Source: Planktothrix pseudagardhii
Lineage (GTDB): Bacteria > Cyanobacteriota > Cyanobacteriia > Cyanobacteriales > Microcoleaceae
DNA length: 64,000 bases
Reading direction: 5' to 3'
Assembly (NCBI RefSeq): GCF_904830925.1
Contig: NZ_LR882967.1
Location: 3,298,106-3,362,105 of the forward strand
Of this stretch, positions 12,262-29,015 are shown in pieces; position 1 is the first letter of the stretch; every line of letters begins with the position of its first letter. Position numbers and translations under genes: made by a program. The notes beneath the pieces were generated by a model, which searched no databases, had not been told where the DNA came from, and saw only the letters and a program-made list of their open reading frames with translations.

Positions 12262-12299
12262 TTCTCTATGTTTTGTTAACTATTCCCTGCTATAACCCT

Positions 12300-13040
12300 A
12301 TGACTTTAAATCCTCTCATTCTGCATCAAGGATGTTCTCTAACCCTCAAACGCACAACTCCCGATGATGCTATTTTTCTATTTGAAAAAATGTATTCTTG
12401 TTATGAATTTATGCGTTTATTTCGTTTGAATGATACAGCAGAAACCGTAGAAGAAGTTAGAGAAAAATTAATCAGAAGATCCCGTTTAACACCTGCTGAA
12501 AGTGGTTATTTAGAATGTTTAATGATTCATAAACATCATGGCATCATTGGAATTATTGCCGCCGCCGACTATAGTGCTCTCCATAAAAGGGCTGAACTGT
12601 TAATTGGAATTTTTGAAGAAAAATATCGTTCTATTTCCTATGGGATTGAAGCGGGTTTATTAATGACAGATTTAATTTTTAATGCCTATCATTTACATCG
12701 CTATTATGCCTATTGTTATGGTTATAACCATCCTGTCCATGCAGCTTTAATTACCGCAGGATTTCAATTAGAAGGAATCATGAAAGAACATTTATATGAT
12801 CCGATCGCTCAACAATATATTGATCTGCACATTTATGCTATGAATGAAACTCAGATGCGACAAAATCCTCGGATTTCTCGTTTATCTAAACGATTAGTTG
12901 GGCGTGATATTACCCAACCTTTAACAGCACCCCTTCCTCCTCCTGATGAATCAAAAATTCCGGGTCTGGGTCGTATTTCCCCATCAGAAAATCAACCTTA
13001 TTTTGCTAAATCAGGAATACTTAAACGAATAAGTTCTTAA
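12300..13040 (+). CDS. GNAT-family N-acetyltransferase (RimJ/RimL-like).
   Basis: The C-terminal ...HPVHAALITAGFQLEGIMKEHLYDP...QYIDLHIYAM is the classic GNAT motif B and C-terminal region. The in-frame ATG at 12300 is a more plausible start than the overlapping upstream start at 12225. Confidence 0.6.
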   Translation: MTLNPLILHQGCSLTLKRTTPDDAIFLFEKMYSCYEFMRLFRLNDTAETVEEVREKLIRRSRLTPAESGYLECLMIHKHHGIIGIIAAADYSALHKRAELLIGIFEEKYRSISYGIEAGLLMTDLIFNAYHLHRYYAYCYGYNHPVHAALITAGFQLEGIMKEHLYDPIAQQYIDLHIYAMNETQMRQNPRISRLSKRLVGRDITQPLTAPLPPPDESKIPGLGRISPSENQPYFAKSGILKRISS

Positions 13041-13864: not shown

Positions 13865-14785
13865 ATGAGTAAATTAAGAGACTATCTGGACAAGAATCCC
13901 CAGCAAGCAAAAAGGCTATTAGGGATGGAATATGAACAGATGATAGAACTCATTCAAGCTGCGGAGTTATTAGAAGAAGAAAAACGACAGGAAAAAGAAA
14001 AAACTAAAATCAGGTTGATTAAAGCAGGTGGGGGTCGTCGGCAGAAATTATCTGTGGAGGAACAAATCTTACTGACTCTAATTTATCTGCATCAAATGCC
14101 GACATTTCAAATGTTAGGGTTACAGTTTGAAGTCAGTGAATCAACAGCGAATGATATTTTCCATAACTGGATAAAAATCTTGAGAGAATTACTACCAGCG
14201 AGTTTGCTAGAGCAAGTAAAAAAAAACGAGAGTGATTGGGAGTGGGTAGAAAAAATTCTGGTGGAATTTGAGTTAGTAGTAGATAGCTATGAACAGCCCA
14301 GGGAAAGACCAACAGACAATGAAGAGCAGAAAAAATATTACTCAGGAAAGAAAAAGACACATACCTTTAAAAATCAAGTCATTGTCATGCCAAATGGAAA
14401 AGAAATAGTGGATGTAGCTGTGGGTTATACCGGAGCAACAAGTGATCTGAAATTGTGGAGAGAAAGAAGCCAGGAATTGGGGAATAATCAAAAATACAGA
14501 GGGGATAAAGCTTATGTAGGAGAAACAGCAATTAATACACCGTATAAGAAACCGAGGAATCAAGAGATGTCGGCGGAAAAGCGAGAAGAAAATCGGTTAA
14601 AAGCCCAACAAAGGATTGTAGTTGAACATTTAATAAGACTGATAAAAATTTATCGAGTTGCTTCAGAAAGATTTCGGTTAAAGAGGCAAAATTATGAAGC
14701 AGTAATCTTGACAGTATGTGGATTAATAAGATGGCGAATAGGAGCGATTGTATTACCATCTAAGAATTGCCCAGAATTCTTTTGA
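13865..14785 (+). CDS. IS5-family (DDE_Tnp_4 / Harbinger-like) transposase.
   Basis: The central motifs YSGKKKTHTFKNQVIV...VAVGYTGATSD...YRGDKAYVGE...NTPYKKPRNQEMSAEKREENRLKAQQRIVVEHLIRLIKIYR fit DDE_Tnp_4. A short GGGGTAAAA...TTTTACCCC inverted repeat sits just upstream (13826-13858). Confidence 0.75.
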   Translation: MSKLRDYLDKNPQQAKRLLGMEYEQMIELIQAAELLEEEKRQEKEKTKIRLIKAGGGRRQKLSVEEQILLTLIYLHQMPTFQMLGLQFEVSESTANDIFHNWIKILRELLPASLLEQVKKNESDWEWVEKILVEFELVVDSYEQPRERPTDNEEQKKYYSGKKKTHTFKNQVIVMPNGKEIVDVAVGYTGATSDLKLWRERSQELGNNQKYRGDKAYVGETAINTPYKKPRNQEMSAEKREENRLKAQQRIVVEHLIRLIKIYRVASERFRLKRQNYEAVILTVCGLIRWRIGAIVLPSKNCPEFF

Positions 14786-14830: not shown

Positions 14831-15295
14831 GTGACTGAAAAAGCCTATGAATCCGTTACTTTTGGAGAAGCCGGCACAGGAGTGCTAGAGATTCCAAAAG
14901 TAGCGATAGAGGGCATTTGGAGATTTTCGGAGATGTCTAGTGGTGAAAGTGATCAAGTTGCATTAGCGGAAATCGGGGACTGGTTGAAGCGATGGCTAGA
15001 GGCTGTGAATATTTCTCTAACCGATAAAACCCAGTTCGAGGAAGCAACGCGCCATTTACAGTTCGCCATCTTGGTGACAGTGTTAGCGAATCGGTTAAGC
15101 TTTGTGCTTGACCACCTCAGTGCTTTAATGCGATCGCAGGTGATCGACTTTCACGACACTAGCTTATCCCTGGTCAATCGCCCACCACGAGACTATTTAG
15201 CCATTGTCCCTTCGTCACCAGTGGGCAATATCCTCGGCTTTCGATATACCAGCGATCGCCGCCTGCTGGGCAGTTATAATGATGGAAGGAGTTAG
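14831..15295 (+). CDS. Hypothetical protein, possibly a fragment.
   Basis: This is an ORF only. I recognise no motif. It lies in the IS/fragment-rich region. Confidence 0.25.
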   Translation: MTEKAYESVTFGEAGTGVLEIPKVAIEGIWRFSEMSSGESDQVALAEIGDWLKRWLEAVNISLTDKTQFEEATRHLQFAILVTVLANRLSFVLDHLSALMRSQVIDFHDTSLSLVNRPPRDYLAIVPSSPVGNILGFRYTSDRRLLGSYNDGRS

Positions 15296-15647
15296 CATTC
15301 TCGCCCTAGTTTTTTCGCCGTTAGTCATCGGAATATTCAGTAACGACACTGAAGTCATAGCAACCACTACTACCATTCTGCGTATTCATATTTTTTACCA
15401 AGCTGGCGATGCTATTTTTATGATTTACCGAGCCGCTTTGGTGGGATTAAATGATACTTTTTATGTGCGAAATATTAGTTTATTAGGCGGTTGGTTTGTA
15501 ATGATACCTGTTTCATTATTACTAACAAGCGTTATGTCTTTCGGCGTAGTAGGGGCTTGGCTTAAACTAACCCTTAATGTGTTAATCAGTGCGATATTCT
15601 ACGCAGGACGTTTTCACTTTAAATTGAGAGATAGAATAAACAATTGA
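15290..15647 (+). pseudogene. C-terminal fragment of a MATE-family efflux transporter gene.
   Basis: ...ILALVFSPLVIGIFSNDTEVIATTTTILRIHIFYQAGDAIFMIYRAALVGLNDTFYVRNISLLGGWFVMIPVSLLL... matches the last TM helices of NorM/DinF-type MATE proteins. The N-terminal two-thirds are absent. Confidence 0.6.
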
Positions 15648-15880: not shown

Positions 15881-16999
15881 TCAGGGCTGTTTCATTTTCC
15901 CAAATTGGGGAGTCAAATTGAGTCCCCAATTTTTAGGAATGAGGCGAAAAAGTTGTCCTTCTGTTATTGATACAAAACCCCAACTTCTGAAAAGATTGAT
16001 TACCAGAGTTTTAAGAGTTGAAAAGTTGCTAGCTGCTTGAAAGTTACGAATTCGGCTTTTATCTTCTTGAAAAATTACATCTTTTACCCAATGGTATTGA
16101 TTCTCAATCCCCCAATGTCCTTTAATGATTTGAGCTAAGGTTTGAGCTTCGTTAACGGCACTACTGATATAATATACTTTTTCTTGATAGGGTTTTTTTC
16201 CTCTGTTGCCACTTCTTTCTATCTGAATCACAAGTTTCAGATGTTTCCAGCCTTTGTGAAAGTTGTTATTGACTTGATAAATGGAAACTTTTCGAGTCAC
16301 TTTTCTGCCATGGCTGTGTTCATGAGTCACATCTACACTCACAGGATTTTCACTTTTTATTACCGCTTCAACTTGCTCATATAACTTTTTTTGATTTTTC
16401 TTTAAAGCCATTATATAATCATTCCCGCTCTCAATAACTAGGGCAGCAGTTTTCTGATTACAGTGCAACGCATCAAAGGTTATTACTTTTCTTTTTAACT
16501 GGCAATCCCTTACTATCTTTTGGGCTTGGCTGATTTCTGATTCTTTTTTGTTCTCCATCTTTCTCAGGTTTAATACGCATCCTGTTCTTTGACTAAACAG
16601 TGCAACAATCATCACAAAATTTTGGGATTTATCTCCAAAATCTTTGAGAGTGCTTCTCAGGCTTTTTCCATCTACTGCTAACCAATCTAGTTCTTCTTGA
16701 TGCGGATAATTACAAGTAGCCCATTCATTAAATATCTCAATTAAATTTAACCAATCTACTCCTTGTATTACTCTTCTTATTGTTGAGTATGATGGCAGTT
16801 TTTCTAGCTTGATTTTTAAAACTTGACTCAGTTGGTATTGATTGATTTTCGCAAAATTTTCGAGTTCTCTGTACCCTAAATTTCTCGACATTAGCCCCAA
16901 AATGACTATTAATAATACTAGCCATATTGGATGCCTTGTTCCCTGGGCTTTCCGGTAATCCTTGACTTTTTTCAGTTTTTCTATTAGAGTTGTTAGCAT
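15881..16999 (-). CDS. ISAs1-family transposase (H-repeat-associated, DDE_Tnp_1 with N-terminal DDE_Tnp_1_assoc domain).
   Basis: The N-terminus KDYRKAQGTRHPIWLVLLIVILGLMSRNLGYRELENFAKIN is the ISAs1-associated domain. The DDE core includes ...LAVDGKSLRS...ITFDALHCNQK...HWGIENQYHWVKDVIFQEDKSR. Confidence 0.8.
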   Translation of the reverse strand: MLTTLIEKLKKVKDYRKAQGTRHPIWLVLLIVILGLMSRNLGYRELENFAKINQYQLSQVLKIKLEKLPSYSTIRRVIQGVDWLNLIEIFNEWATCNYPHQEELDWLAVDGKSLRSTLKDFGDKSQNFVMIVALFSQRTGCVLNLRKMENKKESEISQAQKIVRDCQLKRKVITFDALHCNQKTAALVIESGNDYIMALKKNQKKLYEQVEAVIKSENPVSVDVTHEHSHGRKVTRKVSIYQVNNNFHKGWKHLKLVIQIERSGNRGKKPYQEKVYYISSAVNEAQTLAQIIKGHWGIENQYHWVKDVIFQEDKSRIRNFQAASNFSTLKTLVINLFRSWGFVSITEGQLFRLIPKNWGLNLTPQFGKMKQP

Positions 17000-17253
17000 C
17001 TTTATTTTTACAAAAAAATCAGCGACCGCTTTTGATTTTATCAGCTAGCAATCGCTATTTCTTTACTCTTTTCCCCCCGACTTTGAAACAGCCCTGGTTC
17101 AAGTCGGGGGTGATGCCTGTTATGAAAATTATGGAGGGTGTGAGCATTTCCTCTCTAGCAGAGCTAATGCTAGAGCAATGGGCATTGGCTCTGCTCCAGT
17201 CAGCATCCCCATCCACTGAACTCGATGACAGTATGGAGGAAATCGCTCTATGA
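16990..17253 (+). pseudogene. Probable 3' remnant of an upstream biosynthetic gene cut off by the ISAs1 insertion. Its stop overlaps the NRPS start codon (ATGA).
   Basis: The ORF ends ...SISSLAELMLEQWALALLQSASPSTELDDSMEEIAL. Its TGA overlaps the ATG of the NRPS at 17250-17253. Its 5' part runs into the ISAs1 element, so only the last 65 or so codons can be native. Confidence 0.3.
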
Positions 17254-20200
17254 ACCTTAAGCAATTTGTAGCTGAACTCGCCCTAGCTGGTGTGAAGTTG
17301 TGGGTCGAAGACGACCAGTTGCGCGTGCGGGCACCAAAGAAGGTACTGACACCAGAGGTACGTAATTTATTGGCATTGCATAAGGCAGAACTTGTAAAGT
17401 TGCTACAGAACAGCAATGCGATCGCCAATGATACTGACCTACCCCTTCTAAGAGTTTCGCGAACTGGTAACTTGCCTCTGTCTTTTGCCCAAGAAGGACT
17501 GTGGTTCTTGAGCCAGTTGGAGCCAACTAACCCCTTCTACAACGTACCACTAGCTCTGCGACTTAATGGTTCTCTCAACGTTGTCGCTTTAGAGAAAAGC
17601 CTCAACAAGATAATTCAACGCCACGAGGTCTTACGCACCAACTTCACAACGGTTGAGGGGCAACCCGTTCAGGTTATTGCTCTTGGCTTGACCTTGAGTG
17701 TGCAAGTCATAGATTTGAGTGAGCTACCTGAGAGTGAAAGAGAAATTGCTTGGGGGCTAAAAGCCAGGGCACAAATCCAGCAACCCTTTGACCTCAGTAG
17801 CTCTGGGTTGATTCAAGCTTCTGTGCTAAAGCTAACACCGACAGAACATATCTTGTTACTAACAATACATCACATTGTCTGGGATGCTCCTTCAGAGGGC
17901 GTATTGGTCAAGGAGTTAGCAGCTTTCTACACAGCCTACTGCAATGACTTGCTACCAGAGCTACCAGAGCTACCGATTCAGTACGCCGACTTTGCTGTTT
18001 GGCAGCGGCAGTGGTTACAGGAAGACATACTAGAGTCTCAACTTGCTTATTGGAAGCAACAACTGTCTGGTGCGCCAGAAATATTGGAACTGCCAACTGA
18101 CCGAGTGCGAAAAGCAACTCAAACGTTTCGAGGGGCGTGTCACCGACAAGCACTCTCAAAAGAACTAACAGAGGCTTTGATGATTTTAAGTCAACGCAAA
18201 GGAGTTACTCTGTTTATGACGCTGTTGGCGGCGCTCTTCACATTGCTTTACCGTTATACAGAGCAGACCGATATTTGCGTAGGCACGCCTTACGCAGGCC
18301 GGGAGCGCCGTGAGCTTCAGGGATTGATTGGATTGTTTCTCAATACGTTGGTTCTGCGGACTGATATATCAGGTAATCCGAGTTTTGAGGAGCTACTCTC
18401 AAGAGTCCGGGACGTGGCTTTGGGAGCATACGCTCATCATGACCTACCGTTTGAAAAGTTATTAGAACAATTGCAGCCAGCGCGTAACTTAAGCTACACA
18501 CCGTATTTCCAAGTGAGGTTTGTGCTTTACCCAGCGATGCAGATAGACATGGAAGGCTTAACGGTGAGTCCAGTAGCGGTAGAAACAGCTACGGCGAAGT
18601 TGGATTTGTTTGTAGCTTTCGTCAACAGCGACTCTGGACTAATCGGGACGTGGGAATACAATACTGACTTGTTTGATGCCAGTACGATCAATCGCATGGC
18701 TCAACATTTTCAGACCTTACTAGAGGGAATTGTTGCTAATCCTCAACAGAAGGTTTCAGAATTGCCATTGCTCACAGAGCCAGAGCGACACCAGCTATTA
18801 GTAGAGTGGAACAACGCCACAAAAGAGTATCCCTTCAATAAGTGTATCCACCAGTTATTTGAGGAACAGGTGGAGCGATCGCCTGATGCTATTGCGGTGG
18901 TTTTTGAAGGGGAGCAACTGACCTACCAAGATTTGAACCAACGGGCGAACAGAATAGCACATCACTTGAAAACTCTAGGTGTGGAGCCAGAAGTGCTGGT
19001 GGGCATCTACGTTGATCGCTCCTTAGAGATGGTAGTGAGTCTACTTGGCATCCTCAAAACTGGAGGGGCTTATGTGCCTTTAGACCCATCCTATCCCAAA
19101 GAGCGCTTAGCGTTCATGTTGCAAAATTCACAACCAAAGGTGTTGTTGACTCAGGAGTGCTTGATAACAGAACTGCCTGAACATACGGCACAAGTTGTTT
19201 GCTTAGATACAGATAGGCATCTCATTGCTCAACACTCAGAAGAAAATTTAAACCAAACAGCAACAGTTGCTAATTTAGCCTATGTCATTTATACCTCTGG
19301 CTCAACGGGAAAGCCAAAGGGAGTACAGGTGACACACGCTAATTTGTGTCACTATGCCCAAGCAATGAGTCAAGTGCTAAATATCACAGCAGAAGATGTA
19401 TATTTGCACACCGCATCGATTGCTTTCTCATCTTCTGTCAGACAGTTGATCGTGCCTCTGGCTAGTGGGGCAACTGTCAAAATTGCAACTTCTGAACAGA
19501 GAAAAGACCCACAATCACTATTTACGACAATTAAACAACATAGTGTGACAGTTATTGATATTGTCCCCTCTTATTGGCGTAACTGCATTCATACACTTGC
19601 TAGCTTAGAACCTGTTACGAAACAAGCACTGTTAGATAACAAACTGCGTTTAATTGTGTCGGCGAGCGAACCGCTGCTGTCCGATCTTCCTACTCAGTGG
19701 ACGTTTGGTTTTCAGCACAAAGCACGATTAATCAATATGTTTGGTCAAACTGAAACTTGTGGAATTGTTGCCACTTATCCAATTCCGGCACAACAGGATG
19801 AGCCAATCAAAATTGTCCCTATCGGTCGCCCGATCACCAACACACAAATTTATCTGCTCGACTGCCATCTGCAACCAGTCCCTGTTGGTGTACCTGGGGA
19901 AGTGCATATTGGTGGTTTTGGACTGGCGCGAGGCTACCTCAACAGCCCAGAATTGACAAAAGAAAAATTCATCCCCAACCCCTTTAGCCAAGAAGAAGGA
20001 ACACGCCTCTACAAAACCGGGGACAATGCCCGCTACCTTCCAGACGGTAACATTGAGTTCCTTGGTCGGCTGGATCGTCAAGTGAAGATTCGCGGTTTCC
20101 GTATTGAACTCGGAGAAATCGAAGCAGCGCTAGCTCAACACCCAGAGGTACGGGAGACAGTAGTTTTAGCAAGGGATGACCAACCAGATAACAAACGACT

Positions 20201-21503
20201 GGTAGCTTATGTTGTTCCCAACCATGAACCTCCTGCCACCATTGAACTGCGGCACTTCCTCCAACAAAAGCTCCCAGACTACATGGTGCCGGGAGCCTTT
20301 GTGATGCTTTCTTCTTTACCTCTCACCCCCAATGGTAAGGTAGACCGTCGCGCCTTGGAGACACCAGATACGGAATTAAGTAACTCAATGGGCTTTGTCC
20401 CTCCCCGTGACACAGTTGAACAGCAACTACAGCAAATTTGGTCAGAGGTTTTGAAGCTTCCGACTGTTGGAATGAAGGATAACTTCTTTACTTTCGGAGG
20501 TCATTCTCTTTTAGCTGTACTCTTAATGGCTCAAATTTCGCGGCATTTTGGGAAAAATCTGCCCATAGCAACGCTTTTCTCTAGCCCAACTATCGAACAG
20601 CTAGCTAGTTGTCTTCGATCCGAAACTCATTCCTTGCCTTGGTCTCCTTTGGTAGCAATTCAGTCTGGCACCGAGAAGCGACCTTTCTTCTTTGTGCCTG
20701 GAGTTGGGGGAAATGTGATTTACTTATATGAGCTAGCGCGTCATCTTGGATCTGAGCAACCCTTCTACGGTCTGCAAGCACGGGGACTGGATGGCGAATC
20801 AGAGCCTTTTACACAGTTGGAAGAGATAGCCACCTACTATATTGAAGCAATACAGACAGTTCAGCCCTCTGGTCCGTACCTGCTGGGAGGGCATTCGTTT
20901 GGAGGTGTAGTTGCCTTTGAGATGGCAACTCAGTTGCTCAAACAGGGGCATGAGGTCGCTCTACTTGCAATTATTGACGTTGTTGCGCCAATTGTTGCTA
21001 ATAAGCCGAATTATTCTGATGAAGATGAGGTGGCATATCTTTTTGATTTTGCCAGCTATATTGAATATATGTTCTCCCTCAAGTTGGAGGTATCTAAAGA
21101 AACTCTTGCTTCCCTATCTCAGGAGGAGCAATTGAACTATCTCAAAGAACGGTTGATACGGGTCAATTTGCTACCCCCTGATGCGGGAATAGGGTTAGTA
21201 CGGGGGCTAGTGCAAGTATACATTGCGTCCCTGAAAGCTCATCGTGCTTATTTGCCTTCGGGGCTGCAACAAGCTCCCATTACTCTTTTCCGTTCTAGTG
21301 AGGTTGATGTATTTGAGGGTGATACAGAAGAGTTGAAACAAAGGCGAAAAGAACCTGCTTTGGGCTGGAACGAGTTTTCTTCTACTATAGACATTCATGT
21401 TGTTCCAGGGAACCATAGCACCATGATGCAACAGCCGCACGTACAGGTGTTAGCCACACAACTTCTCTCTTGCCTAAAGCAAACACAGGCTCCATTGGCT
21501 TAG
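17250..21503 (+). CDS. Single-module nonribosomal peptide synthetase: N-terminal TubC-type docking domain, then C, A, T (PCP) and TE domains.
   Basis: Docking domain: MNLKQFVAELALAGVKLWVEDDQLRVRAPKKVLTPEVRNLLALHKAELVKLL. C domain: HHIVWDA motif near 17868. A domain: A3 LAYVIYTSGSTGKPKGV near 19290, A5 NMFGQTE, A7 YKTGDNARY, A8 GRLDRQVKIRGFRIELGEIE, A10 PNGKVDRRAL. T domain: FFTFGGHSLLAV, Ser near 20503. TE: GGHSFGG near 20889, with a C-terminal GNHSTMM His. Confidence 0.85.
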   Translation: MNLKQFVAELALAGVKLWVEDDQLRVRAPKKVLTPEVRNLLALHKAELVKLLQNSNAIANDTDLPLLRVSRTGNLPLSFAQEGLWFLSQLEPTNPFYNVPLALRLNGSLNVVALEKSLNKIIQRHEVLRTNFTTVEGQPVQVIALGLTLSVQVIDLSELPESEREIAWGLKARAQIQQPFDLSSSGLIQASVLKLTPTEHILLLTIHHIVWDAPSEGVLVKELAAFYTAYCNDLLPELPELPIQYADFAVWQRQWLQEDILESQLAYWKQQLSGAPEILELPTDRVRKATQTFRGACHRQALSKELTEALMILSQRKGVTLFMTLLAALFTLLYRYTEQTDICVGTPYAGRERRELQGLIGLFLNTLVLRTDISGNPSFEELLSRVRDVALGAYAHHDLPFEKLLEQLQPARNLSYTPYFQVRFVLYPAMQIDMEGLTVSPVAVETATAKLDLFVAFVNSDSGLIGTWEYNTDLFDASTINRMAQHFQTLLEGIVANPQQKVSELPLLTEPERHQLLVEWNNATKEYPFNKCIHQLFEEQVERSPDAIAVVFEGEQLTYQDLNQRANRIAHHLKTLGVEPEVLVGIYVDRSLEMVVSLLGILKTGGAYVPLDPSYPKERLAFMLQNSQPKVLLTQECLITELPEHTAQVVCLDTDRHLIAQHSEENLNQTATVANLAYVIYTSGSTGKPKGVQVTHANLCHYAQAMSQVLNITAEDVYLHTASIAFSSSVRQLIVPLASGATVKIATSEQRKDPQSLFTTIKQHSVTVIDIVPSYWRNCIHTLASLEPVTKQALLDNKLRLIVSASEPLLSDLPTQWTFGFQHKARLINMFGQTETCGIVATYPIPAQQDEPIKIVPIGRPITNTQIYLLDCHLQPVPVGVPGEVHIGGFGLARGYLNSPELTKEKFIPNPFSQEEGTRLYKTGDNARYLPDGNIEFLGRLDRQVKIRGFRIELGEIEAALAQHPEVRETVVLARDDQPDNKRLVAYVVPNHEPPATIELRHFLQQKLPDYMVPGAFVMLSSLPLTPNGKVDRRALETPDTELSNSMGFVPPRDTVEQQLQQIWSEVLKLPTVGMKDNFFTFGGHSLLAVLLMAQISRHFGKNLPIATLFSSPTIEQLASCLRSETHSLPWSPLVAIQSGTEKRPFFFVPGVGGNVIYLYELARHLGSEQPFYGLQARGLDGESEPFTQLEEIATYYIEAIQTVQPSGPYLLGGHSFGGVVAFEMATQLLKQGHEVALLAIIDVVAPIVANKPNYSDEDEVAYLFDFASYIEYMFSLKLEVSKETLASLSQEEQLNYLKERLIRVNLLPPDAGIGLVRGLVQVYIASLKAHRAYLPSGLQQAPITLFRSSEVDVFEGDTEELKQRRKEPALGWNEFSSTIDIHVVPGNHSTMMQQPHVQVLATQLLSCLKQTQAPLA

Positions 21504-21577
21504 TAATTGGTCTGTTAAGTGGAAATTTTTGAGGTAATTAACAAGCTCTTTCATTTGACTAAAAAAGCTCAATCATT

Positions 21578-22549
21578 ATGAAAATAGGAATTTTCGACTC
21601 GAATCACAATCTACCCTTGCTAGTAGAACCTGACACAAAACGCGAATCGTCTAATTTTGATTATCTCCTTTCATGGTACAAAGATAATAGTGAACTTTTA
21701 TCAAACAAAATTTTGAAACACGGAGCGATTCTTTTTCGAGGTTTTGATGTCAATACAATCTTAGCTTTTGAAAAATTCGTTAAATCTATTTCAGGTAATT
21801 TAATAGATTATGTTGATGGAAATTCTCCCCGAACCCAACTAGCTAGTGGTATTTATACTTCAACTGAATATCCAGCTGAATACTCCATTAGTTTGCATAA
21901 TGAGTTATCCTACTCTAGCCAATGGCCAGACCAACTCTATTTTTGCTGTATTACTGCGCCTAAAGAGGGCGGAGAAACACCAATTGCTGATAGTCGCCAA
22001 ATCCTCAAAAGTCTTAACCCAAAGATTGTGGAAAAGTTCACACTTAAACAAGTGAAGTATATCCGCAATTTACCTAGTAGTAATGGCATGGGAGTTTCAT
22101 GGCAAGATGCTTTTAAAACTTCAGATAAGTCCCTAGTAGAAGAGCATAATAGAAAAGCTGGTATGGATTTTGAGTGGAAGAAGGATGGAGGATTGCGATT
22201 AAGCCAGATTCGTCCTGCTATTGCAACTCATCCTCGTACAGATGAACAAGTTTGGTTTAATCAAGCCGATCTATTTCATCCATCTACTCTTCCTAAAAAT
22301 ATCTACGAAGCTATGATGTTTTATTTTGACGGTAACGAAGAGGAACTCCCTCACTATGCTTGCTTTGGCGACAATACTCCAATTGATGTTTCAATGCTAG
22401 ATGAAATTAGAGAAACTATTGGTAAACAAACTGTTGTTTTTCCTTGGCGGGAGGGTGATGTTCTAGTCATAGATAATATGTTAGTTTGTCATGGACGAAG
22501 ACCGTTTTTTGGTTCGAGAAAAATTTTGATTTCTATGTCACAATTCTGA
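21578..22549 (+). CDS. Fe(II)/2-oxoglutarate-dependent oxygenase of the TauD/clavaminate-synthase-like family. Probably an amino-acid beta-hydroxylase (VioC/AsnO/SyrP-like).
   Basis: The HxE facial triad start (SLHNELSY) and the C-terminal DNMLVCHGRRPF (second His plus 2OG-binding Arg) are typical of the CAS-like branch of PF02668. The gene sits between NRPS genes. Confidence 0.7.
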   Translation: MKIGIFDSNHNLPLLVEPDTKRESSNFDYLLSWYKDNSELLSNKILKHGAILFRGFDVNTILAFEKFVKSISGNLIDYVDGNSPRTQLASGIYTSTEYPAEYSISLHNELSYSSQWPDQLYFCCITAPKEGGETPIADSRQILKSLNPKIVEKFTLKQVKYIRNLPSSNGMGVSWQDAFKTSDKSLVEEHNRKAGMDFEWKKDGGLRLSQIRPAIATHPRTDEQVWFNQADLFHPSTLPKNIYEAMMFYFDGNEEELPHYACFGDNTPIDVSMLDEIRETIGKQTVVFPWREGDVLVIDNMLVCHGRRPFFGSRKILISMSQF

Positions 22550-22574
22550 TTATCTTAGCTATAAGTGTAAGTAG

Positions 22575-24356
22575 ATGTATCAATTCCAAGAGTCTCTTCC
22601 AAAACTACCTTTGCCCAAACTCTCAGACACCTGCGCTCGTTATATCGAGATGGTAACACCGCTGTTGAGTGACACAGAATTAGAGCGAACTAAGACCGCC
22701 GTAAGGGAATTTCAACAAGGGAGTGGAGTCGAACTACAGAAGCAATTGGAGATGATTGACCGCTCAACTAATACTAACTATTTACAACAATTTAAAGAGG
22801 AAACCTATTTAGAAATGCGGTCTTCACAACTAAATATGAGAAGCACAGGGGTGGCTTCGCCCGTCTTGACAACCTCGAAATATTCCTTTACCCGCATTGT
22901 CGCCATCATAATTTTTAATACCCTCCAATTCCACCTGAAAATCAAATATCGGGAACTAGAGCCAGATCGCGATGTATTTCAACGAAACAAACCTCCCCTT
23001 TGTATGGCTCAGTATGACAATTTGTTTGGCAGTGCGCGAATTCCTGGAATCAAATGTGACAGCTTTCAAAGGGCGAAAAATTCTGAGCATATTGTGGTCA
23101 TCCGACGGGATACGTTTTACGTCTTAAAGTTGCTCCCAGGGGATACGTTACCGTCGGTGGAAGCTGTAGCACAGCAAATTGATTGGATTCTGGAAAATAC
23201 TCATCCAGGGGAACTTCCTGTGGGAGTGCTGACATCTCTCCCCAGAGAACAGTGGGCAACAGTTCGCTCCTACCTCACGAACCTAGATGCAGAAAACGCT
23301 TGCTCTCTAGAACTATTGGATAGCGCCTTATTTGTTGTCTGTTTAGACGAAATAACGCCTCCCGATTTGGAAAGGCTAGCAAGAACTGCCTTTACTGGAG
23401 ATGGTGGGCGAAACCGATGGTTCGATAAACCTATTCGGCTCGTTTTTAACTCTGAGGGTCAGTTCGCTGTAACAATTGAACACAGTAATGTCGATGGTTA
23501 TCCGGTAGCACGGTTGATAAGCGAGGTCAACCGGGAGCTTGAACCCCTTGAAGAATCCCTTACATCCTCCAGTTCAGTCGAACTCGAACCCCCACAGCGA
23601 CTGTGGTGGAAATTAGACCAGAAACTCCGAGAAGAAGTAGCTCAAGCATTAACAGATGCAGAGTGTCTGAGCGAACAAATTCAGATGGGGATAATAATTT
23701 TCGACGAATTTGGGTCAGACTTTATCCAGCAACATGGTTTAATTGCTGATGCTGTGTTTCTCCTGTCGCTACAGATTGCTTACACTCGCCTGCATGGTAA
23801 GATTACTACTAGCGCTTGGCAAGCTGTACACAACAGAACCTTCCGGTACGGGCGGCACGACTACGCCTTAGTAGTTACACCCGAATCTGTAGAACTCATT
23901 CAAGCCTTTACTGAGGGAGCTTCAGACGAAGTGCGATATCGGACTCTAAAACGTGCTGTTAACGCTCATTTATGGCGAGTGTTTAACACTAAAAACGGGC
24001 AGGGAGTGGTCATGCACCTTTATGCGCTTTATAACTTAGCTCGCTATAAAGGCAGCAGTGTTCTCGATATTTTTCAAGATAAAACCTTTGAAGAAGTTAT
24101 CTTAGACCCAAGCTTCTCCGCTTCTGCCCTAAGTAATAAAATGGGTGTAGAGATAGCCTGCCCCAGTCCATGTCGCGACTATGGAATCGGCTATGTCATC
24201 GATCGCAACAAGATTACCTTTGCTGTAACGAGTAAACATCTACAGCCGGAAGATTTCATCGCTCTTGTCAAGCAGTGTCTTTCAGAAATCGGAAAATTGT
24301 TAATAGAGCAACGACACCCAGATTCCAATATAAGAATACATTCATCACCACAATGA
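22575..24356 (+). CDS. Choline/carnitine O-acyltransferase family protein (593 aa).
   Basis: The N-terminal LPKLPLPKLSDTCARYIEMVTPLL matches the conserved LPxLPVPxLxxTLxxYL start of carnitine acyltransferases. The catalytic-His region TIEHSNVDGYPVARL matches the EHSxxDG motif. Length fits the family. Confidence 0.7.
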   Translation: MYQFQESLPKLPLPKLSDTCARYIEMVTPLLSDTELERTKTAVREFQQGSGVELQKQLEMIDRSTNTNYLQQFKEETYLEMRSSQLNMRSTGVASPVLTTSKYSFTRIVAIIIFNTLQFHLKIKYRELEPDRDVFQRNKPPLCMAQYDNLFGSARIPGIKCDSFQRAKNSEHIVVIRRDTFYVLKLLPGDTLPSVEAVAQQIDWILENTHPGELPVGVLTSLPREQWATVRSYLTNLDAENACSLELLDSALFVVCLDEITPPDLERLARTAFTGDGGRNRWFDKPIRLVFNSEGQFAVTIEHSNVDGYPVARLISEVNRELEPLEESLTSSSSVELEPPQRLWWKLDQKLREEVAQALTDAECLSEQIQMGIIIFDEFGSDFIQQHGLIADAVFLLSLQIAYTRLHGKITTSAWQAVHNRTFRYGRHDYALVVTPESVELIQAFTEGASDEVRYRTLKRAVNAHLWRVFNTKNGQGVVMHLYALYNLARYKGSSVLDIFQDKTFEEVILDPSFSASALSNKMGVEIACPSPCRDYGIGYVIDRNKITFAVTSKHLQPEDFIALVKQCLSEIGKLLIEQRHPDSNIRIHSSPQ

Positions 24357-24366
24357 GCTTTGAAAA

Positions 24367-25512
24367 ATGGACTTTTCATGGACAGAGGAACAAATTCAGT
24401 TTAGAGAGAAGATTGTTAAATTCGCCCAACAAGAGTTGCAATCAAATCTAATTGACCTAGATTGGCGAGAAGAATTTAACCGAGAAAGTTGGGAAAAATG
24501 TGGGAAATTTGGTCTGATCGGTCTGCCAATTCCTGAACATTATGGGGGAACTGGGACAGATATTCTTACAACGATTTGTGCCTTGGAAGCTTTAGGTTAT
24601 GGTTGTAAAGACAATGGTCTAATCTTTGCCATCAACGCTCATATATGGGCTGGCGAAATACCGATTTTAACCTTTGGCACCGAAGCTCAAAAACAAAAGT
24701 ATCTCCCCAAACTCTGTAGCGGTGAATTCATTGGCGCTCATGGGGCAAGTGAACCAGAAGCAGGTTCGGATATTTACAATCTTAAGACTACTGCCAAAAT
24801 ACAGGGAGACAAGTACATCTTAAATGGTGTTAAGAATTGGGTCACAAATGGTCCAGTTGCTGACCTTTACATTGTATTTGCGAATGTCGCTCCCGAAAAA
24901 GGAAAACGGGGAATTACTGGATTTATCGTCGAAAAAGATTTTGCCGGAGTCGCGATCAATCGTAAAATTTCCAAAATGGGTTTAAGAACGACTCAGTTAG
25001 GTGAACTGTTCCTAGAAAATTGTGAAGTGCCGAGTGAAAATCGTCTTGGTCAAGAGGGTTCGGGACTTGCTATCTTTAATCACAGTATGGAATGGGAGCG
25101 AGGATTCATTCTTGCCAGTGCGATCGGGACTATGGAACGTCTGTTAGAAAGCTGCATTCAATATGCTAGGAAGCGCCAGCAATTTGGTCAATCGATTGGA
25201 AAATTTCAGTTAGTTAGCAGCAAAATTGTTGACATGAAGATGCGACTTGAAACAGCTAGAGCGCTGCTGTATAAAGTAGGATGGTTAAAAAATAATAAAA
25301 AAACGGCGATTATGGAAGCGGCAATGGCAAAACTTTATATTAGTGAATCTTGGGTGCAGTCCTGCCTTGATGCAATTCAGATTCATGGTGGTTATGGCTA
25401 TCTAACTGAGTTAGAACTAGAACGAGAATTAAGGGATGCGTTAGGGAGCAAGCTTTATTCAGGAACCTCTGAGATTCAGTACCAAATAATTGCCCAATTT
25501 ATGGGATTATAG
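24367..25512 (+). CDS. Acyl-CoA dehydrogenase-family flavoprotein. Predicted carrier-protein-tethered prolyl oxidase (PltE/RedW/CloN3/AnaB-like).
   Basis: It has the ACAD fold (MDFSWTEEQ..., GASEPEAGSD, C-terminal ...QIHGGYGY...). It is 381 aa, sits immediately upstream of a stand-alone A domain and a stand-alone PCP, and the stops and starts are closely spaced. Confidence 0.75.
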   Translation: MDFSWTEEQIQFREKIVKFAQQELQSNLIDLDWREEFNRESWEKCGKFGLIGLPIPEHYGGTGTDILTTICALEALGYGCKDNGLIFAINAHIWAGEIPILTFGTEAQKQKYLPKLCSGEFIGAHGASEPEAGSDIYNLKTTAKIQGDKYILNGVKNWVTNGPVADLYIVFANVAPEKGKRGITGFIVEKDFAGVAINRKISKMGLRTTQLGELFLENCEVPSENRLGQEGSGLAIFNHSMEWERGFILASAIGTMERLLESCIQYARKRQQFGQSIGKFQLVSSKIVDMKMRLETARALLYKVGWLKNNKKTAIMEAAMAKLYISESWVQSCLDAIQIHGGYGYLTELELERELRDALGSKLYSGTSEIQYQIIAQFMGL

Positions 25513-25624
25513 AGGGTGATTTTTTGTTTACGCGAGAGCATTTGCGAGATTACGAGACAACGCTGCGGCGCGCTACGAAGAATTGGTACGAATTCATCTC
25601 GCTGTATTATCGTTTGAACATTCT

Positions 25625-27244
25625 ATGGAAGACAGCCCAAAACCCATGCCGTATCTACTGCAACAGCTTTTAGAAATTAGTGCCAAGCAATATCCAGACC
25701 GGGAAGCTGTAATCTATAAAAATAGCAGCATCACGTATCGGGAGTTAGACCAAGTTTCTAATCAGTTAGCCCACCTCTTGATAAGTTGCGGGATATCAAG
25801 AGGCGATCGCGTCGGCATTTACGTGAACAAATCCATTGAAGCAGTCATTGCCATTTTCGGTATCCTTAAAGCTGGATCTGTCTACGTTCCCCTAGACCCC
25901 TTAGCTCCTGCGAAGCGGATAGGCTTTATCATTGACAATTGCCAGATGAAGGCTTTGGTGAGTACCCATAAAAAGATAGCCAGCCTTCAACTGCCAAACA
26001 CCTCTGGTGTCCAGTGCCTGGTACTCGCTGACGATGAAGCACAACAGGACACGGGTAATCTGTCAAATGTCAGGATGGTGTCTTGGCAAGAGGTGTTGCA
26101 AGCACCGCCAAACCCATCACCACCCAGCAATTTGATTGAAGACGATCTTGCCTACATTCTCTACACATCCGGCTCCACTGGCACTCCCAAAGGGGTGATG
26201 ATTAGCCATCGAGCTTCTCTAACCTTTGTCAACTGGGCTTATGATTGCTTTCAGGTACAAAGGAGCGATCGCGTTTCCAATCACGCCCCACTTCATTTCG
26301 ATCTTTCCATCTTTGATATCTTCACCACTATCAAAGCAGGTGCGACTGTCATTCTGGTACCACCGGAACTCTCAGTGTTTCCCAGAAACCTCGCTCAGTT
26401 TATTGAAGAACAACAAATTACCATCTGGTATTCTGTCCCTTCAGTGCTGAGACAGCTAATTGTTTACGGCAACCTGCATCAGGCTCAATTTCCCCATATT
26501 CGGACGATTTTGTTTGCGGGGGAAGTGTTCCCAGTTAAATACCTGCGTCAACTTATGGAGTTGCTACCGCAAGCCAACTACTATAATCTCTACGGACCCA
26601 CAGAAACAAATGTCTGTACTTACTATCCGGTAAAGGAAATTCCTCCTGAAGAGGTAAGAACTCTGCCCATTGGCAAAGCTTGTGCCAACACAGAGGTATT
26701 TGCCGTCAATGAACACAAAGAAATTACCAAACCAGGAGAAGTTGGGGAACTTTACGTGCGTAGCCCCTCCTTAATGAAAGGATACTGGGGAAATCATGAC
26801 AAAACCCAACAGGCTCTCACACCTTTCCCCGTACCAGGTTGCGGATGGTTAGAAAAAGTTTACCGAACTGGGGATTTAGTGAAACTCAATTCTGATGGCA
26901 ACTATATTTATTTAGGTCGTCGCGATAACCAGATTAAGAGCCGAGGATACCGAATTGAACTGGATGAAATTGAAACGACGCTATACGCTCATCCTGCAAT
27001 TGTTGAAGCAGCCGTAATTGCTATTCCCGATGAGGAAATCGGCAAGAAAATCAAGGCTATAATTGCCACACAGGATGGAAATAATCTCAAAAAGAGCGAT
27101 GTAGAATATTTTTGTGCACAGCGTCTACCTAAATACATGATACCGGAGCTAATTGAGTTTCGTTCTGGGTTACCTAAAACCCCTACAGGCAAGATTGACA
27201 AAACCTTACTGCGTACCGAAGAACTTCAAGAGAATTCAAAATAG
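25625..27244 (+). CDS. Free-standing adenylation enzyme (amino-acid adenylation domain). Predicted L-proline activating (PltF/RedM/CloN4/AnaC-like).
   Basis: Core motifs: YTSGSTGTPKGV (A3), FDLSIFDIF (A4, Asp present), NLYGPTETNV (A5), YRTGDLVKL (A7), GRRDNQIKSRGYRIELDEIE (A8), PKTPTGKIDK (A10). The hand-aligned specificity residues are about D-L-F-Y-L-A-L-V-C-K. The ATG at 25625 is preferred over the TTG at 25583. Confidence 0.75.
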   Translation: MEDSPKPMPYLLQQLLEISAKQYPDREAVIYKNSSITYRELDQVSNQLAHLLISCGISRGDRVGIYVNKSIEAVIAIFGILKAGSVYVPLDPLAPAKRIGFIIDNCQMKALVSTHKKIASLQLPNTSGVQCLVLADDEAQQDTGNLSNVRMVSWQEVLQAPPNPSPPSNLIEDDLAYILYTSGSTGTPKGVMISHRASLTFVNWAYDCFQVQRSDRVSNHAPLHFDLSIFDIFTTIKAGATVILVPPELSVFPRNLAQFIEEQQITIWYSVPSVLRQLIVYGNLHQAQFPHIRTILFAGEVFPVKYLRQLMELLPQANYYNLYGPTETNVCTYYPVKEIPPEEVRTLPIGKACANTEVFAVNEHKEITKPGEVGELYVRSPSLMKGYWGNHDKTQQALTPFPVPGCGWLEKVYRTGDLVKLNSDGNYIYLGRRDNQIKSRGYRIELDEIETTLYAHPAIVEAAVIAIPDEEIGKKIKAIIATQDGNNLKKSDVEYFCAQRLPKYMIPELIEFRSGLPKTPTGKIDKTLLRTEELQENSK

Positions 27245-27263
27245 TTCAATAAGGAGATTGATA

Positions 27264-27533
27264 ATGACCGCCGTAAACAAGTACACGGAAGCACAGATAG
27301 AACAGATAATTAAAGAGCATATTGTCCAAAATTTCATGTACGATAGACCCGATATGGTTTTATCAAATGATTTGTCCATAATCGAAGAAGGACTGGTTGA
27401 CTCGCTGGGCATTTTTCGACTGGCTAGCTTTCTGGAAGAAAAGTTTGGTATTACCTTAAATCCAGAAGAATTCTTACTGGAGAATTTTGAAACAGTTAAC
27501 GTTATCAAATCTTTCGTTATCAGCAGACTGTAA
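27264..27533 (+). CDS. Free-standing peptidyl/acyl carrier protein (89 aa).
   Basis: The phosphopantetheine attachment motif is EEGLVDSLGIFRL. A strong RBS AAGGAG lies 8 nt upstream of the ATG. The gene directly follows the A enzyme. Confidence 0.75.
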   Translation: MTAVNKYTEAQIEQIIKEHIVQNFMYDRPDMVLSNDLSIIEEGLVDSLGIFRLASFLEEKFGITLNPEEFLLENFETVNVIKSFVISRL

Positions 27534-27647: not shown

Positions 27648-29015
27648 TCAACCTATGCGTGAATCAGGCAGTTGCTCGGCGACAACCAGAGGTTCATCTT
27701 TCAATGTTCCGGACACCTGCACCGCAAGCACTACCACTCTTATTGCTGCGAACATTGATAGAGCCAACCATAAGAGATGATTGCTCTGATAATGCCATGC
27801 CATGACTGCTAAGGGCGCAAATCCAAACATTGCTCCGCTTAAAGTAGCGTTACGTATAAAATGCCCTTGGGCTAAACCTGCAAAGTATCCATCCAGTATC
27901 ATAGCAATTGAACTAAATCCCAGTCTGGAGAGTAGCCAAGAAACATAGATTTTAACAAGTTCCTTCACTTCACTATGATTGGTTAATAACCCAAAGACTG
28001 TATTCGGGAACAGGATAGACACTCCAGAACAAATTAATGCCGCCAGTAGGCTGGTTGAGACTGCCACCTGCAATAGGGGCAACAATCGATCTATTGTTTG
28101 TTTGCCTTTAAAATTTCCACCCAAAGTCTCGGTAGCAAATCCTATTCCTTCAAAAAAGTAACTGGAAAGCATTATTACTTGTAAGAGTAAGGCATTTTCA
28201 GCCAGGATAGTTGTCCCCATTGCAGAACTTAGAGCCGTGAAAAAGGTGGCGACGAACATATTAGCCGAAGACCTGATAAAGAGATTGCCGTTCAGGGTAA
28301 AAGTCGCTTTAAATGCGCTGGCATCCCAAAACTTTCTGGCTGCACTTCGAGCTTCCTTCCACTCGATATTGAGACTCGCCAAAATTATGCCTACTACTAA
28401 CACCAGATACTGGCTAATTGCCTGAGACAGTCCCGCCCCCGTGCTTGCCCAGTCCCAACGGACAATAAACAGGTAGTCGAACACAACATTAGCTGCATTG
28501 CCTACTAGGGTCATCAGCAACACAAAGCCACTCATTTCTCGTCCGAGAAACCACCCAATCAGAACAAAATTGACGACAACCGCAGGCGCTCCCCAAATTC
28601 GGGCATTGAAATAGTCAATACCTGAAGCCTTAACCTCTGGAGTCACGCTCATTAGACCAAACCACAACTGTTGCAGAGGATATTGCAACAACAGAAGCAG
28701 TCCGCCTATACCCAGTCCGATTAAAGCATTACGCAGTCCCACCAGCAGCATATCTTCGGTGTCATCCCGTCCCACCGCTTGCGCTGTCACTCCAGTGGTT
28801 CCCATGCGTAAAAAGTTCACAATGAAATAGGTGAAGTTAAACAGAGTGGTAGAGAGAGTAACCCCTGCTAAGTGATGGATTTCGGTTAGATGGCCCAGGA
28901 ACGCTAAGCTGATTGTCCCAGCCAGAGGCTCCATAATATTGGACAGGACATTGATGAAAGCTAGTCTAAAGAAGCGAGAAAGGAAGTCGTACCTATTTGG
29001 GAGTGTTATGTTCAT
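27648..29015 (-). CDS. MATE-family efflux transporter, a putative exporter of the cluster product.
   Basis: It has 12 predicted TM helices. The N-terminus ...INVLSNIMEPLAGTISLAFLGHL is typical of NorM/DinF MATE proteins. It is convergent with the biosynthetic genes. Confidence 0.7.
   Translation of the reverse strand: MNITLPNRYDFLSRFFRLAFINVLSNIMEPLAGTISLAFLGHLTEIHHLAGVTLSTTLFNFTYFIVNFLRMGTTGVTAQAVGRDDTEDMLLVGLRNALIGLGIGGLLLLLQYPLQQLWFGLMSVTPEVKASGIDYFNARIWGAPAVVVNFVLIGWFLGREMSGFVLLMTLVGNAANVVFDYLFIVRWDWASTGAGLSQAISQYLVLVVGIILASLNIEWKEARSAARKFWDASAFKATFTLNGNLFIRSSANMFVATFFTALSSAMGTTILAENALLLQVIMLSSYFFEGIGFATETLGGNFKGKQTIDRLLPLLQVAVSTSLLAALICSGVSILFPNTVFGLLTNHSEVKELVKIYVSWLLSRLGFSSIAMILDGYFAGLAQGHFIRNATLSGAMFGFAPLAVMAWHYQSNHLLWLALSMFAAIRVVVLAVQVSGTLKDEPLVVAEQLPDSRIG

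Follow-up and report, generated by a model that had tools for sequence, protein, structure and literature searches.

Cassettes that load L-proline onto a carrier protein and oxidize it there are known from several pathways, among them AnaB/C/D, PltE/F/L, RedW/M/O, PigA/I/G, CloN3/4/5 and Bmp3/4/1. PltA of the pyoluteorin pathway and Mpy16 of the marinopyrrole pathway are pyrrolyl-S-carrier-protein halogenases, and enzymes of this kind need an aromatic pyrrole; in clorobiocin and coumermycin, CloN3/N4/N5 make a pyrrolyl-S-peptidyl carrier protein (PCP) whose acyl group CloN2 and CloN7 transfer to a hydroxyl, and the pyrrole is not a chain starter. In the cyanobacterial anatoxin pathway, AnaB performs a two-electron oxidation and yields 1-pyrroline-5-carboxyl-S-acyl carrier protein (ACP) (PMC6053186). 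Here we analyze a proline cassette and its gene neighborhood in a 64-kb window of the Planktothrix pseudagardhii genome (contig NZ_LR882967.1, positions 3,298,106 to 3,362,105; all coordinates given for it are positions within this window, and + and - denote its strands). An earlier sequence-only reading had placed the trio outside any anatoxin cluster and without a described product, and both statements hold. By nucleotide comparison the locus is a patchwork, partly deleted gene cluster, composed of two fragments whose scars can still be read. The explanation we favor, with a probability of roughly 0.55, is that the cassette turns proline into a pyrrole, that a neighboring acyltransferase hands the pyrrolyl group over, and that the whole is an eroded mosaic cluster.

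The cassette consists of a predicted prolyl-S-PCP dehydrogenase of the acyl-CoA dehydrogenase (ACAD) fold (24367-25512, +, 381 aa), a stand-alone adenylation enzyme predicted to activate L-proline (25625-27244, +, 539 aa) and a free-standing PCP (27264-27533, +, 89 aa). Open reading frames (ORFs) and Pfam matches bear out the positions and identities that the sequence-only reading had given them. The ORF of the adenylation enzyme opens with a TTG at 25583, although its probable start is the ATG at 25625, as in the public genome call. The enzyme carries AMP-binding and AMP-binding_C domains (Pfam), scores 392 bits on the amino acid adenylation model TIGR01733 (cut-off 317), and has the proline ligase PltF (6O6E, 356 bits) as its best single-domain solved relative. 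Alignment to GrsA reproduces the specificity code DLFYLALVCK that had been derived by hand, with Asp235 kept. The code is identical in AnaC of the Kamptonema anatoxin cluster and is found in 102 of the 120 closest homologues; the window enzyme is predicted to be specific for L-proline. It is 62% identical to AnaC and 76-92% identical to the enzymes of other cyanobacterial cassettes. The PCP scores 24.3 bits on Pfam PP-binding (cut-off 20.8), has its phosphopantetheine serine in the motif GLVDSLG, and ends in ...VISRL, without a docking tail.

All three ACAD domains are present in the dehydrogenase (Pfam). On NCBIfam it scores 447 bits for PigA and 400.6 bits for RedW, below the respective equivalog cut-offs of 500 and 650, and 322 bits for the best ordinary acyl-CoA-type model. 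Trios of a dehydrogenase, a ligase and an ACP do occur in lipopeptide clusters, for example LipA/B/D of friulimicin, and the genes might on that precedent be read as an ordinary fatty-acyl system in which a dehydrogenase, an AMP ligase and an ACP supply an unsaturated lipid tail. We consider this next to impossible: it is ruled out by the solved relatives AnaB and PltF, by a PigA score more than 100 bits above that of any acyl-CoA-type model, and by an adenylation enzyme that keeps Asp235 and the proline code of AnaC and scores above the TIGR01733 cut-off. Among solved structures, the top match of the dehydrogenase is AnaB (4IRN, 590 bits, 66% identity); the runner-up reaches 342 bits, and PigA-type structures about 300 bits. 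In the alignment, a MEWE motif stands at the same position and in the same context in the window protein and in AnaB, with a catalytic glutamate that we take to be Glu244. This glutamate is the catalytic base of AnaB and Bmp3 (PMC11177257). NCBI already names the window protein L-prolyl-[peptidyl-carrier protein] dehydrogenase. The trio is, on these matches, a proline-activating and prolyl-S-carrier-protein-oxidizing cassette of the AnaB/C/D and PltE/F/L kind, just as the sequence-only reading had it from the dehydrogenase and its partners; the chemistry is textbook material that carries a database label, and the presence of such a cassette is not in itself news.

What does the dehydrogenase make? 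The gene context of its nearest relatives, taken from comparison loci that we fetched from public genome and metagenome contigs and numbered with an L, bears on this question. The anatoxin proteins AnaB/C/D (L020) are 66% (dehydrogenase), 62% (adenylation enzyme) and 49% (PCP) identical to the window trio. Three cyanobacterial metagenome contigs (L009, L012 and L013), in which a flavin-dependent halogenase gene stands between the dehydrogenase and adenylation genes, come closer in the first two proteins (84-87% and 76-80%) and are comparable to anatoxin in the third (48-53%; a PCP gene was not found in L012). Closest of all is a 20-kb metagenomic contig (L101/L102), at 94%, 91% and 95.5%. It carries, in this order, a megasynthase, [C]-A-T-KS-AT-DH-KR-ACP-TE, an acyltransferase (78% identical to that of the window), the dehydrogenase, a methyltransferase, a halogenase, the adenylation enzyme, the PCP and a MATE-family efflux transporter (80%). 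The L101 halogenase scores 575 bits with Mpy16, 566 bits with ChlB4 and 555 bits with PltA, and intact halogenase genes are present in L009, L012, L013 and L105 as well. Outside anatoxin clusters this cassette lineage is common among cyanobacteria, mostly in company with a halogenase. Many of the dehydrogenase-halogenase-adenylation cassettes have no adjacent polyketide synthase (PKS), and none is characterized; the premise of the sequence-only reading that every known cyanobacterial use of the cassette passes the unit to a PKS leaves them out of account.

No intact FADH2-dependent halogenase gene is present within the window cassette, but a piece of one is. The intergenic gap between the dehydrogenase and adenylation genes measures 112 nt, and within it a 100-nt stretch (25527-25626, +) is 97% identical in nucleotides to positions 13056-13155 of L101, which lie inside the halogenase gene there. 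The window copy is in frame over 33 codons, with the translation FTREHLRDYETTLRRATKNWYEFISLYYRLNIL. A remnant of a PltA/Mpy16-type halogenase at this place argues that the window cassette derives by deletion from a halopyrrole cassette. Because the nearest relatives are halogenase-linked and a halogenase relic lies inside the cassette, the product of the dehydrogenase is most likely pyrrolyl-S-PCP rather than the pyrroline of AnaB. The earlier suggestion of a pyrrole or pyrroline unit is thereby narrowed to the pyrrole, given also the 94% identity of the dehydrogenase to its halogenase-linked counterpart in L101. That the enzyme instead behaves like AnaB and stops at (S)-1-pyrroline-5-carboxyl-S-PCP is improbable in our view. 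AnaB is its closest characterized relative by bit score and identity, and the gene order dehydrogenase-adenylation enzyme-PCP with a MATE gene nearby is the same, yet the relatives that are closer still (84-94%) are tied to carrier-protein-type flavin halogenases, of which the cassette itself holds a relic.

Two further loci show how variable the surroundings of this cassette are. A short contig (L016) shares the adenylation enzyme, PCP and MATE genes with the window at 91% DNA identity, but the gene 5' of its adenylation gene (L016 3-152) is not a dehydrogenase; the 49 residues of its C-terminus match nothing else that we fetched, which suggests that the cassette has been rearranged upstream of the adenylation gene more than once. 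In planktic Planktothrix (L105, 10001-14364), a cassette in the order dehydrogenase-adenylation enzyme-PCP-halogenase, with a dehydrogenase 71% identical to that of the window, is followed by TPR and sulfotransferase genes; neither a PKS nor a nonribosomal peptide synthetase (NRPS) was found within 10 kb of it. This cassette type is widespread in planktic Planktothrix, its protein being indexed in 267 blocks of the collection, and looks like an uncharacterized halopyrrole pathway of bloom-forming strains.

Which protein takes the acyl group from the PCP? Immediately upstream of the dehydrogenase lies the gene that is most consistently linked to the cassette, and that the sequence-only reading, in listing gene partners, overlooked. 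It encodes a protein of 593 aa with a choline/carnitine O-acyltransferase fold (22575-24356, +), matching Pfam Carn_acyltransf (PF00755) over its full length (450.7 bits, profile positions 1-568 of 574). Its catalytic histidine is kept, EHSNVDG aligning with EHSWGDG of CPT2. In the CPT2 alignment, W, A, H and M occupy the positions of CrAT Tyr452, Ser454, Thr465 and Arg518, which we take to be the residues that bind the carnitine carboxylate, and in a reading by hand (GSDFIQ against GKEFLK in CPT2) S and Q occupy those of CrAT Lys419 and Lys423, presumably the binders of the 3'-phosphate of CoA. Carnitine is thus unlikely to be the acceptor of this enzyme, and the residues at the CoA-lysine positions are compatible with a donor carried on the phosphopantetheine arm of a carrier protein.

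Linkage points the same way. The spacer between the acyltransferase and dehydrogenase genes is 10 nt in both the window and L101, and nucleotide identity runs at 88% straight through this junction, while the megasynthases upstream of it differ between the two loci. The relatedness of the PCP follows the presence of the acyltransferase and not the dehydrogenase and adenylation genes: identity is 95.5% to the PCP of L101, 63% to a PCP of Nostoc sp. CHAB 5844 (L005), its closest relative apart from near-identical copies, 48-53% to those of the acyltransferase-free cassettes and 49% to AnaD. In the Nostoc locus, the PCP gene lies between an unrelated AMP-ligase gene and a homologue of the acyltransferase (67%), and the ten large ORFs that were scanned, out of about 20 kb of fetched sequence, showed no condensation (C) or ketosynthase (KS) domain. 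Because the junction is conserved, the PCP tracks the acyltransferase and the active-site residues have changed, we tentatively prefer the acyltransferase to the NRPS C domain as the protein that unloads the pyrrolyl-PCP. We put this route at somewhat less than even odds and the C-domain route at about half of that, and leave the remainder to neither route or an inactive locus.

The AMP-ligase of the Nostoc locus (L005 983-18250) has the code AYGPISLSVK. On either side of the ligase, PCP and acyltransferase genes lie two aminodeoxychorismate/anthranilate-synthase-like genes, a class IV aminotransferase-GNAT fusion, and genes resembling TrpD and a histone deacetylase, an ensemble which suggests that the PCP receives an aminobenzoate-type acid and the acyltransferase hands it on. 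Elsewhere, homologues of the acyltransferase occur immediately downstream of an NRPS whose end consists of C domains and lacks a thioesterase (TE) domain (L004 3889-11737), as the N-terminal part of a fusion with an A-KR-T module (L021 3459-9383), and beside an AprA-like (t-butyl type) PKS loading module and a sulfotransferase (L022 639-7930). Carnitine-acyltransferase-fold homologues are recurring, uncharacterized accessory enzymes of cyanobacterial assembly lines. Full-text literature searches returned nothing relevant on bacterial carnitine-acyltransferase-like enzymes in NRPS/PKS or pyrrole pathways and no characterized bacterial member of the family, and in the literature searched such an enzyme is not described as a decorator that uses pyrrolyl-PCP. 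A bolder generalization would make these proteins unrecognized carrier-protein-dependent acyltransferases of cyanobacterial NRPS/PKS lines, moving pyrrole-2-carboxyl (halogenated in L101) from the PCP to a product hydroxyl and some other acid in Nostoc, with the window locus still making a small, undescribed pyrrole ester from its truncated line; taken as a whole, we think this rather doubtful.

The acyltransferase gene is also where the two halves of the locus meet. Walking upstream from an acyltransferase homologue led to an orphan cluster of Microcoleus sp. B9-D4 and D2_18a_B4 (JAUBTS010000003, JAUBTL010000004), which comprises accessory genes, an NRPS (C-A-T), a PKS (KS-AT-DH-cMT-KR-ACP, 2203 aa), a second NRPS (TubC_N-C-A-T-TE, 1416 aa), a TauD-like oxygenase, the acyltransferase and a methyltransferase. 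Over 7.2 kb, positions 17106-24282 of the window are 93% identical in nucleotides to this cluster, with protein identities of 92% for the NRPS, 91% for the oxygenase and 88% for the acyltransferase. The left limit of this match, at window position 17106, corresponds to a point 147 nt before the end of the PKS gene. What is left of the PKS in the window (17107-17253, +) translates as GVMPVMKIMEGVSISSLAELMLEQWALALLQSASPSTELDDSMEEIAL*, which matches the C-terminal 44 residues of the Microcoleus PKS (P0121), namely the end of an ACP with a C-terminal docking tail, and its stop codon overlaps the start of the NRPS gene as it does in Microcoleus. The ACP serine and everything upstream of it are gone, and in their place stands a transposase gene. 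The top matches of the missing PKS in the protein database included no close homologue from P. tepida, a check in which the genome itself was not searched directly.

The window NRPS (17250-21503, +, 1417 aa) has the architecture TubC_N-C-A-T-TE (Pfam), in agreement with the docking domain and C-A-T-TE order read earlier. Comparison with Microcoleus identifies it as the terminal module of an NRPS-PKS-NRPS line and the absence of the PKS as the outcome of a deletion. The sequence-only reading was right that there is no intact PKS gene, as domain scans found none anywhere in the 64 kb, but the 147-nt relic of one is present. Because a PKS 3' end survives upstream of the NRPS, the docking domain is a leftover of a PKS-to-NRPS hand-over, and it is therefore no evidence that the PCP feeds the NRPS, as had been proposed.

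That proposal nonetheless deserves to be weighed in its own right. Pyrrolyl- or dehydroprolyl-S-PCP would be the starter of the C-A-T-TE NRPS, the C domain would join it to the residue that the adenylation domain of the NRPS loads, the TE domain would free a small N-acyl amino acid, and the oxygenase and the acyltransferase would then modify it. Pyrrolyl-S-PCP starters for C domains have precedent, for example in hormaomycin; the NRPS retains the HHIVWDA motif of its C domain, the T-domain serine and the TE serine, no other donor is encoded nearby, and at 7% DNA divergence from Microcoleus there are no stop codons and the ORFs are all intact. Set against this, the 92%-identical Microcoleus NRPS with the same docking domain draws on a PKS ACP in a cluster that has no proline cassette, including within 10 kb upstream of its PKS; the PKS tail relic means that the present arrangement arose by truncation; the PCP lacks a docking tail; and its relatives track the acyltransferase and not the NRPS, L101 having the cassette and the acyltransferase without a window-type NRPS. 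We judge such a starter role to be distinctly unlikely, and continue to favor transfer by the acyltransferase.

The adenylation domain of the NRPS has the code SSRDVAMGIK, the same in the window and in Microcoleus, and lacks Asp235, the residue that binds the α-amino group; because Asp235 is missing, its substrate is probably not an ordinary α-amino acid. In this domain (18807-20369) as in its Microcoleus counterpart (L017 16609-20859), a core motif reads FGQTE, not YGPTE, and is conserved between the two. Synonymous divergence from Microcoleus is about twofold higher in the docking and C domains (dS 0.22-0.35, 17250-18800) than in the A, T and TE domains (0.10-0.12, 18800-21503), a difference that may mark one more recombination breakpoint within this gene. 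Downstream of the NRPS, the Fe(II)/2-oxoglutarate oxygenase of the TauD/TfdA family (21578-22549, +, Pfam 138.5 bits) has At3g21360 (1Y0Z) and 9YUT as its closest solved structures. Its sequence, with an HxE motif and the distal histidine, points to a hydroxylase; a SyrB2/KtzD-like halogenase was considered and is ruled out by the intact HxE motif.

Two overlapping blocks of homology thus make up the locus: the left-hand part is Microcoleus-like up to 24282, and from 22564 rightwards the sequence is L101-like (88% nucleotide identity in the acyltransferase and dehydrogenase genes, 92% in the adenylation and PCP genes, 84% in the MATE gene), the overlap lying inside the acyltransferase gene. 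The right-hand genes, or the window arrangement in full, recur in L016 and in two assemblies of sequencing runs (L103 and L104). The whole arrangement, however, is seen only in Planktothrix tepida PCC 9214, whose chromosome (LR882970.1; older scaffold LN889812.1) encodes a residue-for-residue match of the window dehydrogenase, and in near-identical sequencing runs. In a published comparison of Planktothrix genomes, PNL3 is an orphan NRPS cluster of 11.3 kb that occurs in PCC 9214 only and has no significant database similarity (PMC5259702). The window locus is probably this cluster, an equation made from size, type and strain only.

Such a history raises the possibility that nothing is made here at all: two cluster fragments would have been joined by recombination and cut by insertion sequences, leaving a non-functional remnant without a product, an outcome compatible with either way of wiring the PCP. 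The PKS relic adjoins a transposase gene, the halogenase and methyltransferase have been deleted, MatE fragments and more transposases lie upstream, and the arrangement was seen only in one strain and in near-identical runs; the dN/dS values of 0.29-0.32 for the NRPS, oxygenase and acyltransferase against Microcoleus fit decay as well. On the other side, all seven ORFs, about 11 kb in total, are intact, and dN/dS for the dehydrogenase, adenylation enzyme and PCP against their nearest partners (L012, L016) is 0.08-0.14, a sign of strong purifying selection. Outgroup-polarized substitution counts gave no clear non-synonymous excess on the window branch, and so no clear relaxation of selection there: 40 non-synonymous and 29 synonymous changes on the window branch against 18 and 23 for the acyltransferase, and 13 and 14 against 12 and 6 for the oxygenase. 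We hold complete loss of function to be unlikely, if a serious contender.

In the pathway that we favor, L-proline would be activated by the adenylation enzyme and loaded on the 89-aa PCP, and the flavin dehydrogenase would convert prolyl-S-PCP to pyrrole-2-carboxyl-S-PCP by removing four electrons, in the manner of PltE, RedW and Bmp3 and not of AnaB. The lineage would normally employ a PltA/Mpy16-type halogenase and a methyltransferase, both of them deleted here with the 100-nt relic left behind, and with the halogenase gone the pyrrole unit would now be unhalogenated. The carnitine-acyltransferase-fold protein encoded 10 nt upstream would then move the pyrrolyl group from the PCP onto the assembly-line product, at a hydroxyl or amine; the acceptor could be a position hydroxylated by the TauD-like enzyme. 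The logic of this transfer would be that of CloN5 and the noviose sugar in clorobiocin, carried out by an unrelated enzyme fold. The NRPS would be what remains, as the last module, of an NRPS-PKS-NRPS line that lost its first NRPS and its PKS beside the transposase, so that the ancestral product would be out of reach of the window locus, which could make at most a shortened molecule, or nothing.

Several observations weigh against this pathway. We know of no sequence determinant that separates two-electron from four-electron oxidation, and AnaB, at 66% identity, stops after two electrons. In the Microcoleus loci fetched (L003, L004 and L017) the acyltransferase is accompanied by neither a proline cassette nor a free PCP, and the cassette was present in none of 80 metagenomic acyltransferase loci; the acyl donor therefore need not be the window PCP. 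The combination of acyltransferase and cassette was seen in none of the six loci of the genome scan and none of the 80 kept from the metagenome scan, and came to light only by walking from dehydrogenase homologues. The N-terminal C domain of the L101 megasynthase could equally take a pyrrolyl-S-PCP starter, and the C domain of the window NRPS, its natural donor lost, could in principle be re-used. Finally, the native upstream region of the adenylation gene has been replaced by the halogenase relic, which, like the dN/dS of about 0.3 in the left-hand genes, is compatible with decay of the cluster.

Around the cluster, the transposase gene that forms its left break (15881-16999, -) carries DDE_Tnp_1 and DDE_Tnp_1_assoc domains (Pfam) and lies directly upstream of the PKS relic. 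Between the two, exactly at the left end of the Microcoleus homology, a GC-rich hairpin (17073-17110, CCCCCCGACTTTGAA...TTCAAGTCGGGGG) may be the end of an insertion sequence; inverted repeats were looked for to delimit such an element, and its ends were not definable from them. Farther left is a second transposase gene (13865-14785, +), and between the two transposase genes lie two overlapping ORFs (14831-15647, +), the second with a weak MatE match. A tblastn search (E 0.001) detected no similarity between them and the MATE gene of the cluster, so they resemble a piece of some other MATE gene. An ORF of 3233 aa (1662-11363, +) with FG-GAP, cadherin-like, Ig-like and RTX calcium-binding repeats encodes a giant secreted adhesin-like protein and is followed by a sulfotransferase-like and a GNAT-like gene (11440-13040). 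Besides this adhesin-like giant, the remainder of the 64 kb holds housekeeping and unrelated genes, among them Dus, LpxB, psbA, FtsH, FtsY and a type I restriction system.

To the right of the cassette, the MATE efflux transporter gene (27648-29015, -, Pfam MatE) travels with the adenylation-PCP pair, having the same position and orientation in L016, L101 and L103. Its product is 50% identical to the MATE protein of the anatoxin cluster, and its score on GntT, the NCBIfam equivalog model of the guanitoxin transporter, is 654 bits (cut-off 525), so that automatic annotation would probably misname it. We rejected a guanitoxin link as over-annotation: on GntD the TauD-like protein reaches just 24 bits, and the window yielded no further gnt gene. 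Membership in an anatoxin cluster was likewise ruled out, since the window has no ana PKS, thioesterase or cyclase genes and identities are 49-66%; neither a type II thioesterase nor a Lipocalin_5 cyclase gene was found in the 64 kb.

These findings have practical and conceptual consequences. PCR or sequence screens for anatoxin potential that target anaC-like genes could pick up paralogues of this kind. The acyltransferase link points to an uncharacterized route by which bacteria may unload carrier proteins. As an example of cluster evolution, the locus combines recombination, truncation by an insertion sequence and internal deletion, with both scars still readable, and it cautions that intact genes alone are a poor guide to product prediction.

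How, then, does the locus compare with the systems described so far? With anatoxin AnaB/C/D of Kamptonema/Oscillatoria PCC 6506/6407 it shares the gene order of the cassette, a MATE gene nearby, the adenylation code, the ACAD fold and the catalytic glutamate, but it lacks the anaE-G PKS genes, the anaA thioesterase and the cyclase, its proteins are only 66%, 62% and 49% identical, and its unit is probably a four-electron pyrrole and probably not a PKS starter. With PltF/PltL/PltE and PltA of pyoluteorin, Mpy16 of marinopyrrole and Bmp1-4 of the bromopyrroles it would share the path from proline through prolyl-S-carrier protein to pyrrolyl-S-carrier protein, PltF being the best match of its adenylation enzyme. 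Those systems halogenate on the carrier, however, whereas the window retains only 100 nt of a halogenase and has a different downstream partner, and its dehydrogenase matches AnaB (590 bits) much better than it does PigA-type structures (about 300 bits). The transfer of a pyrrolyl group to a hydroxyl in clorobiocin and coumermycin is a plausible parallel, although the transferase candidate of the window has the carnitine-acyltransferase fold and is unrelated to CloN2 and CloN7. Compared with CrAT, CPT2 and ChAT, that candidate shares a full-length fold match and the catalytic histidine and differs at the carnitine and CoA-lysine positions. Its best analogue is the cAT release domain found in some fungal PKSs: cyanobacterial homologues likewise stand at or after the end of an assembly line, although the window protein is free-standing. 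Finally, with the Microcoleus cluster the locus shares the NRPS docking domain, the code SSRDVAMGIK, the TauD-like oxygenase and the acyltransferase; it lacks the first NRPS, the PKS and the methyltransferase, but has the proline cassette that Microcoleus does not.

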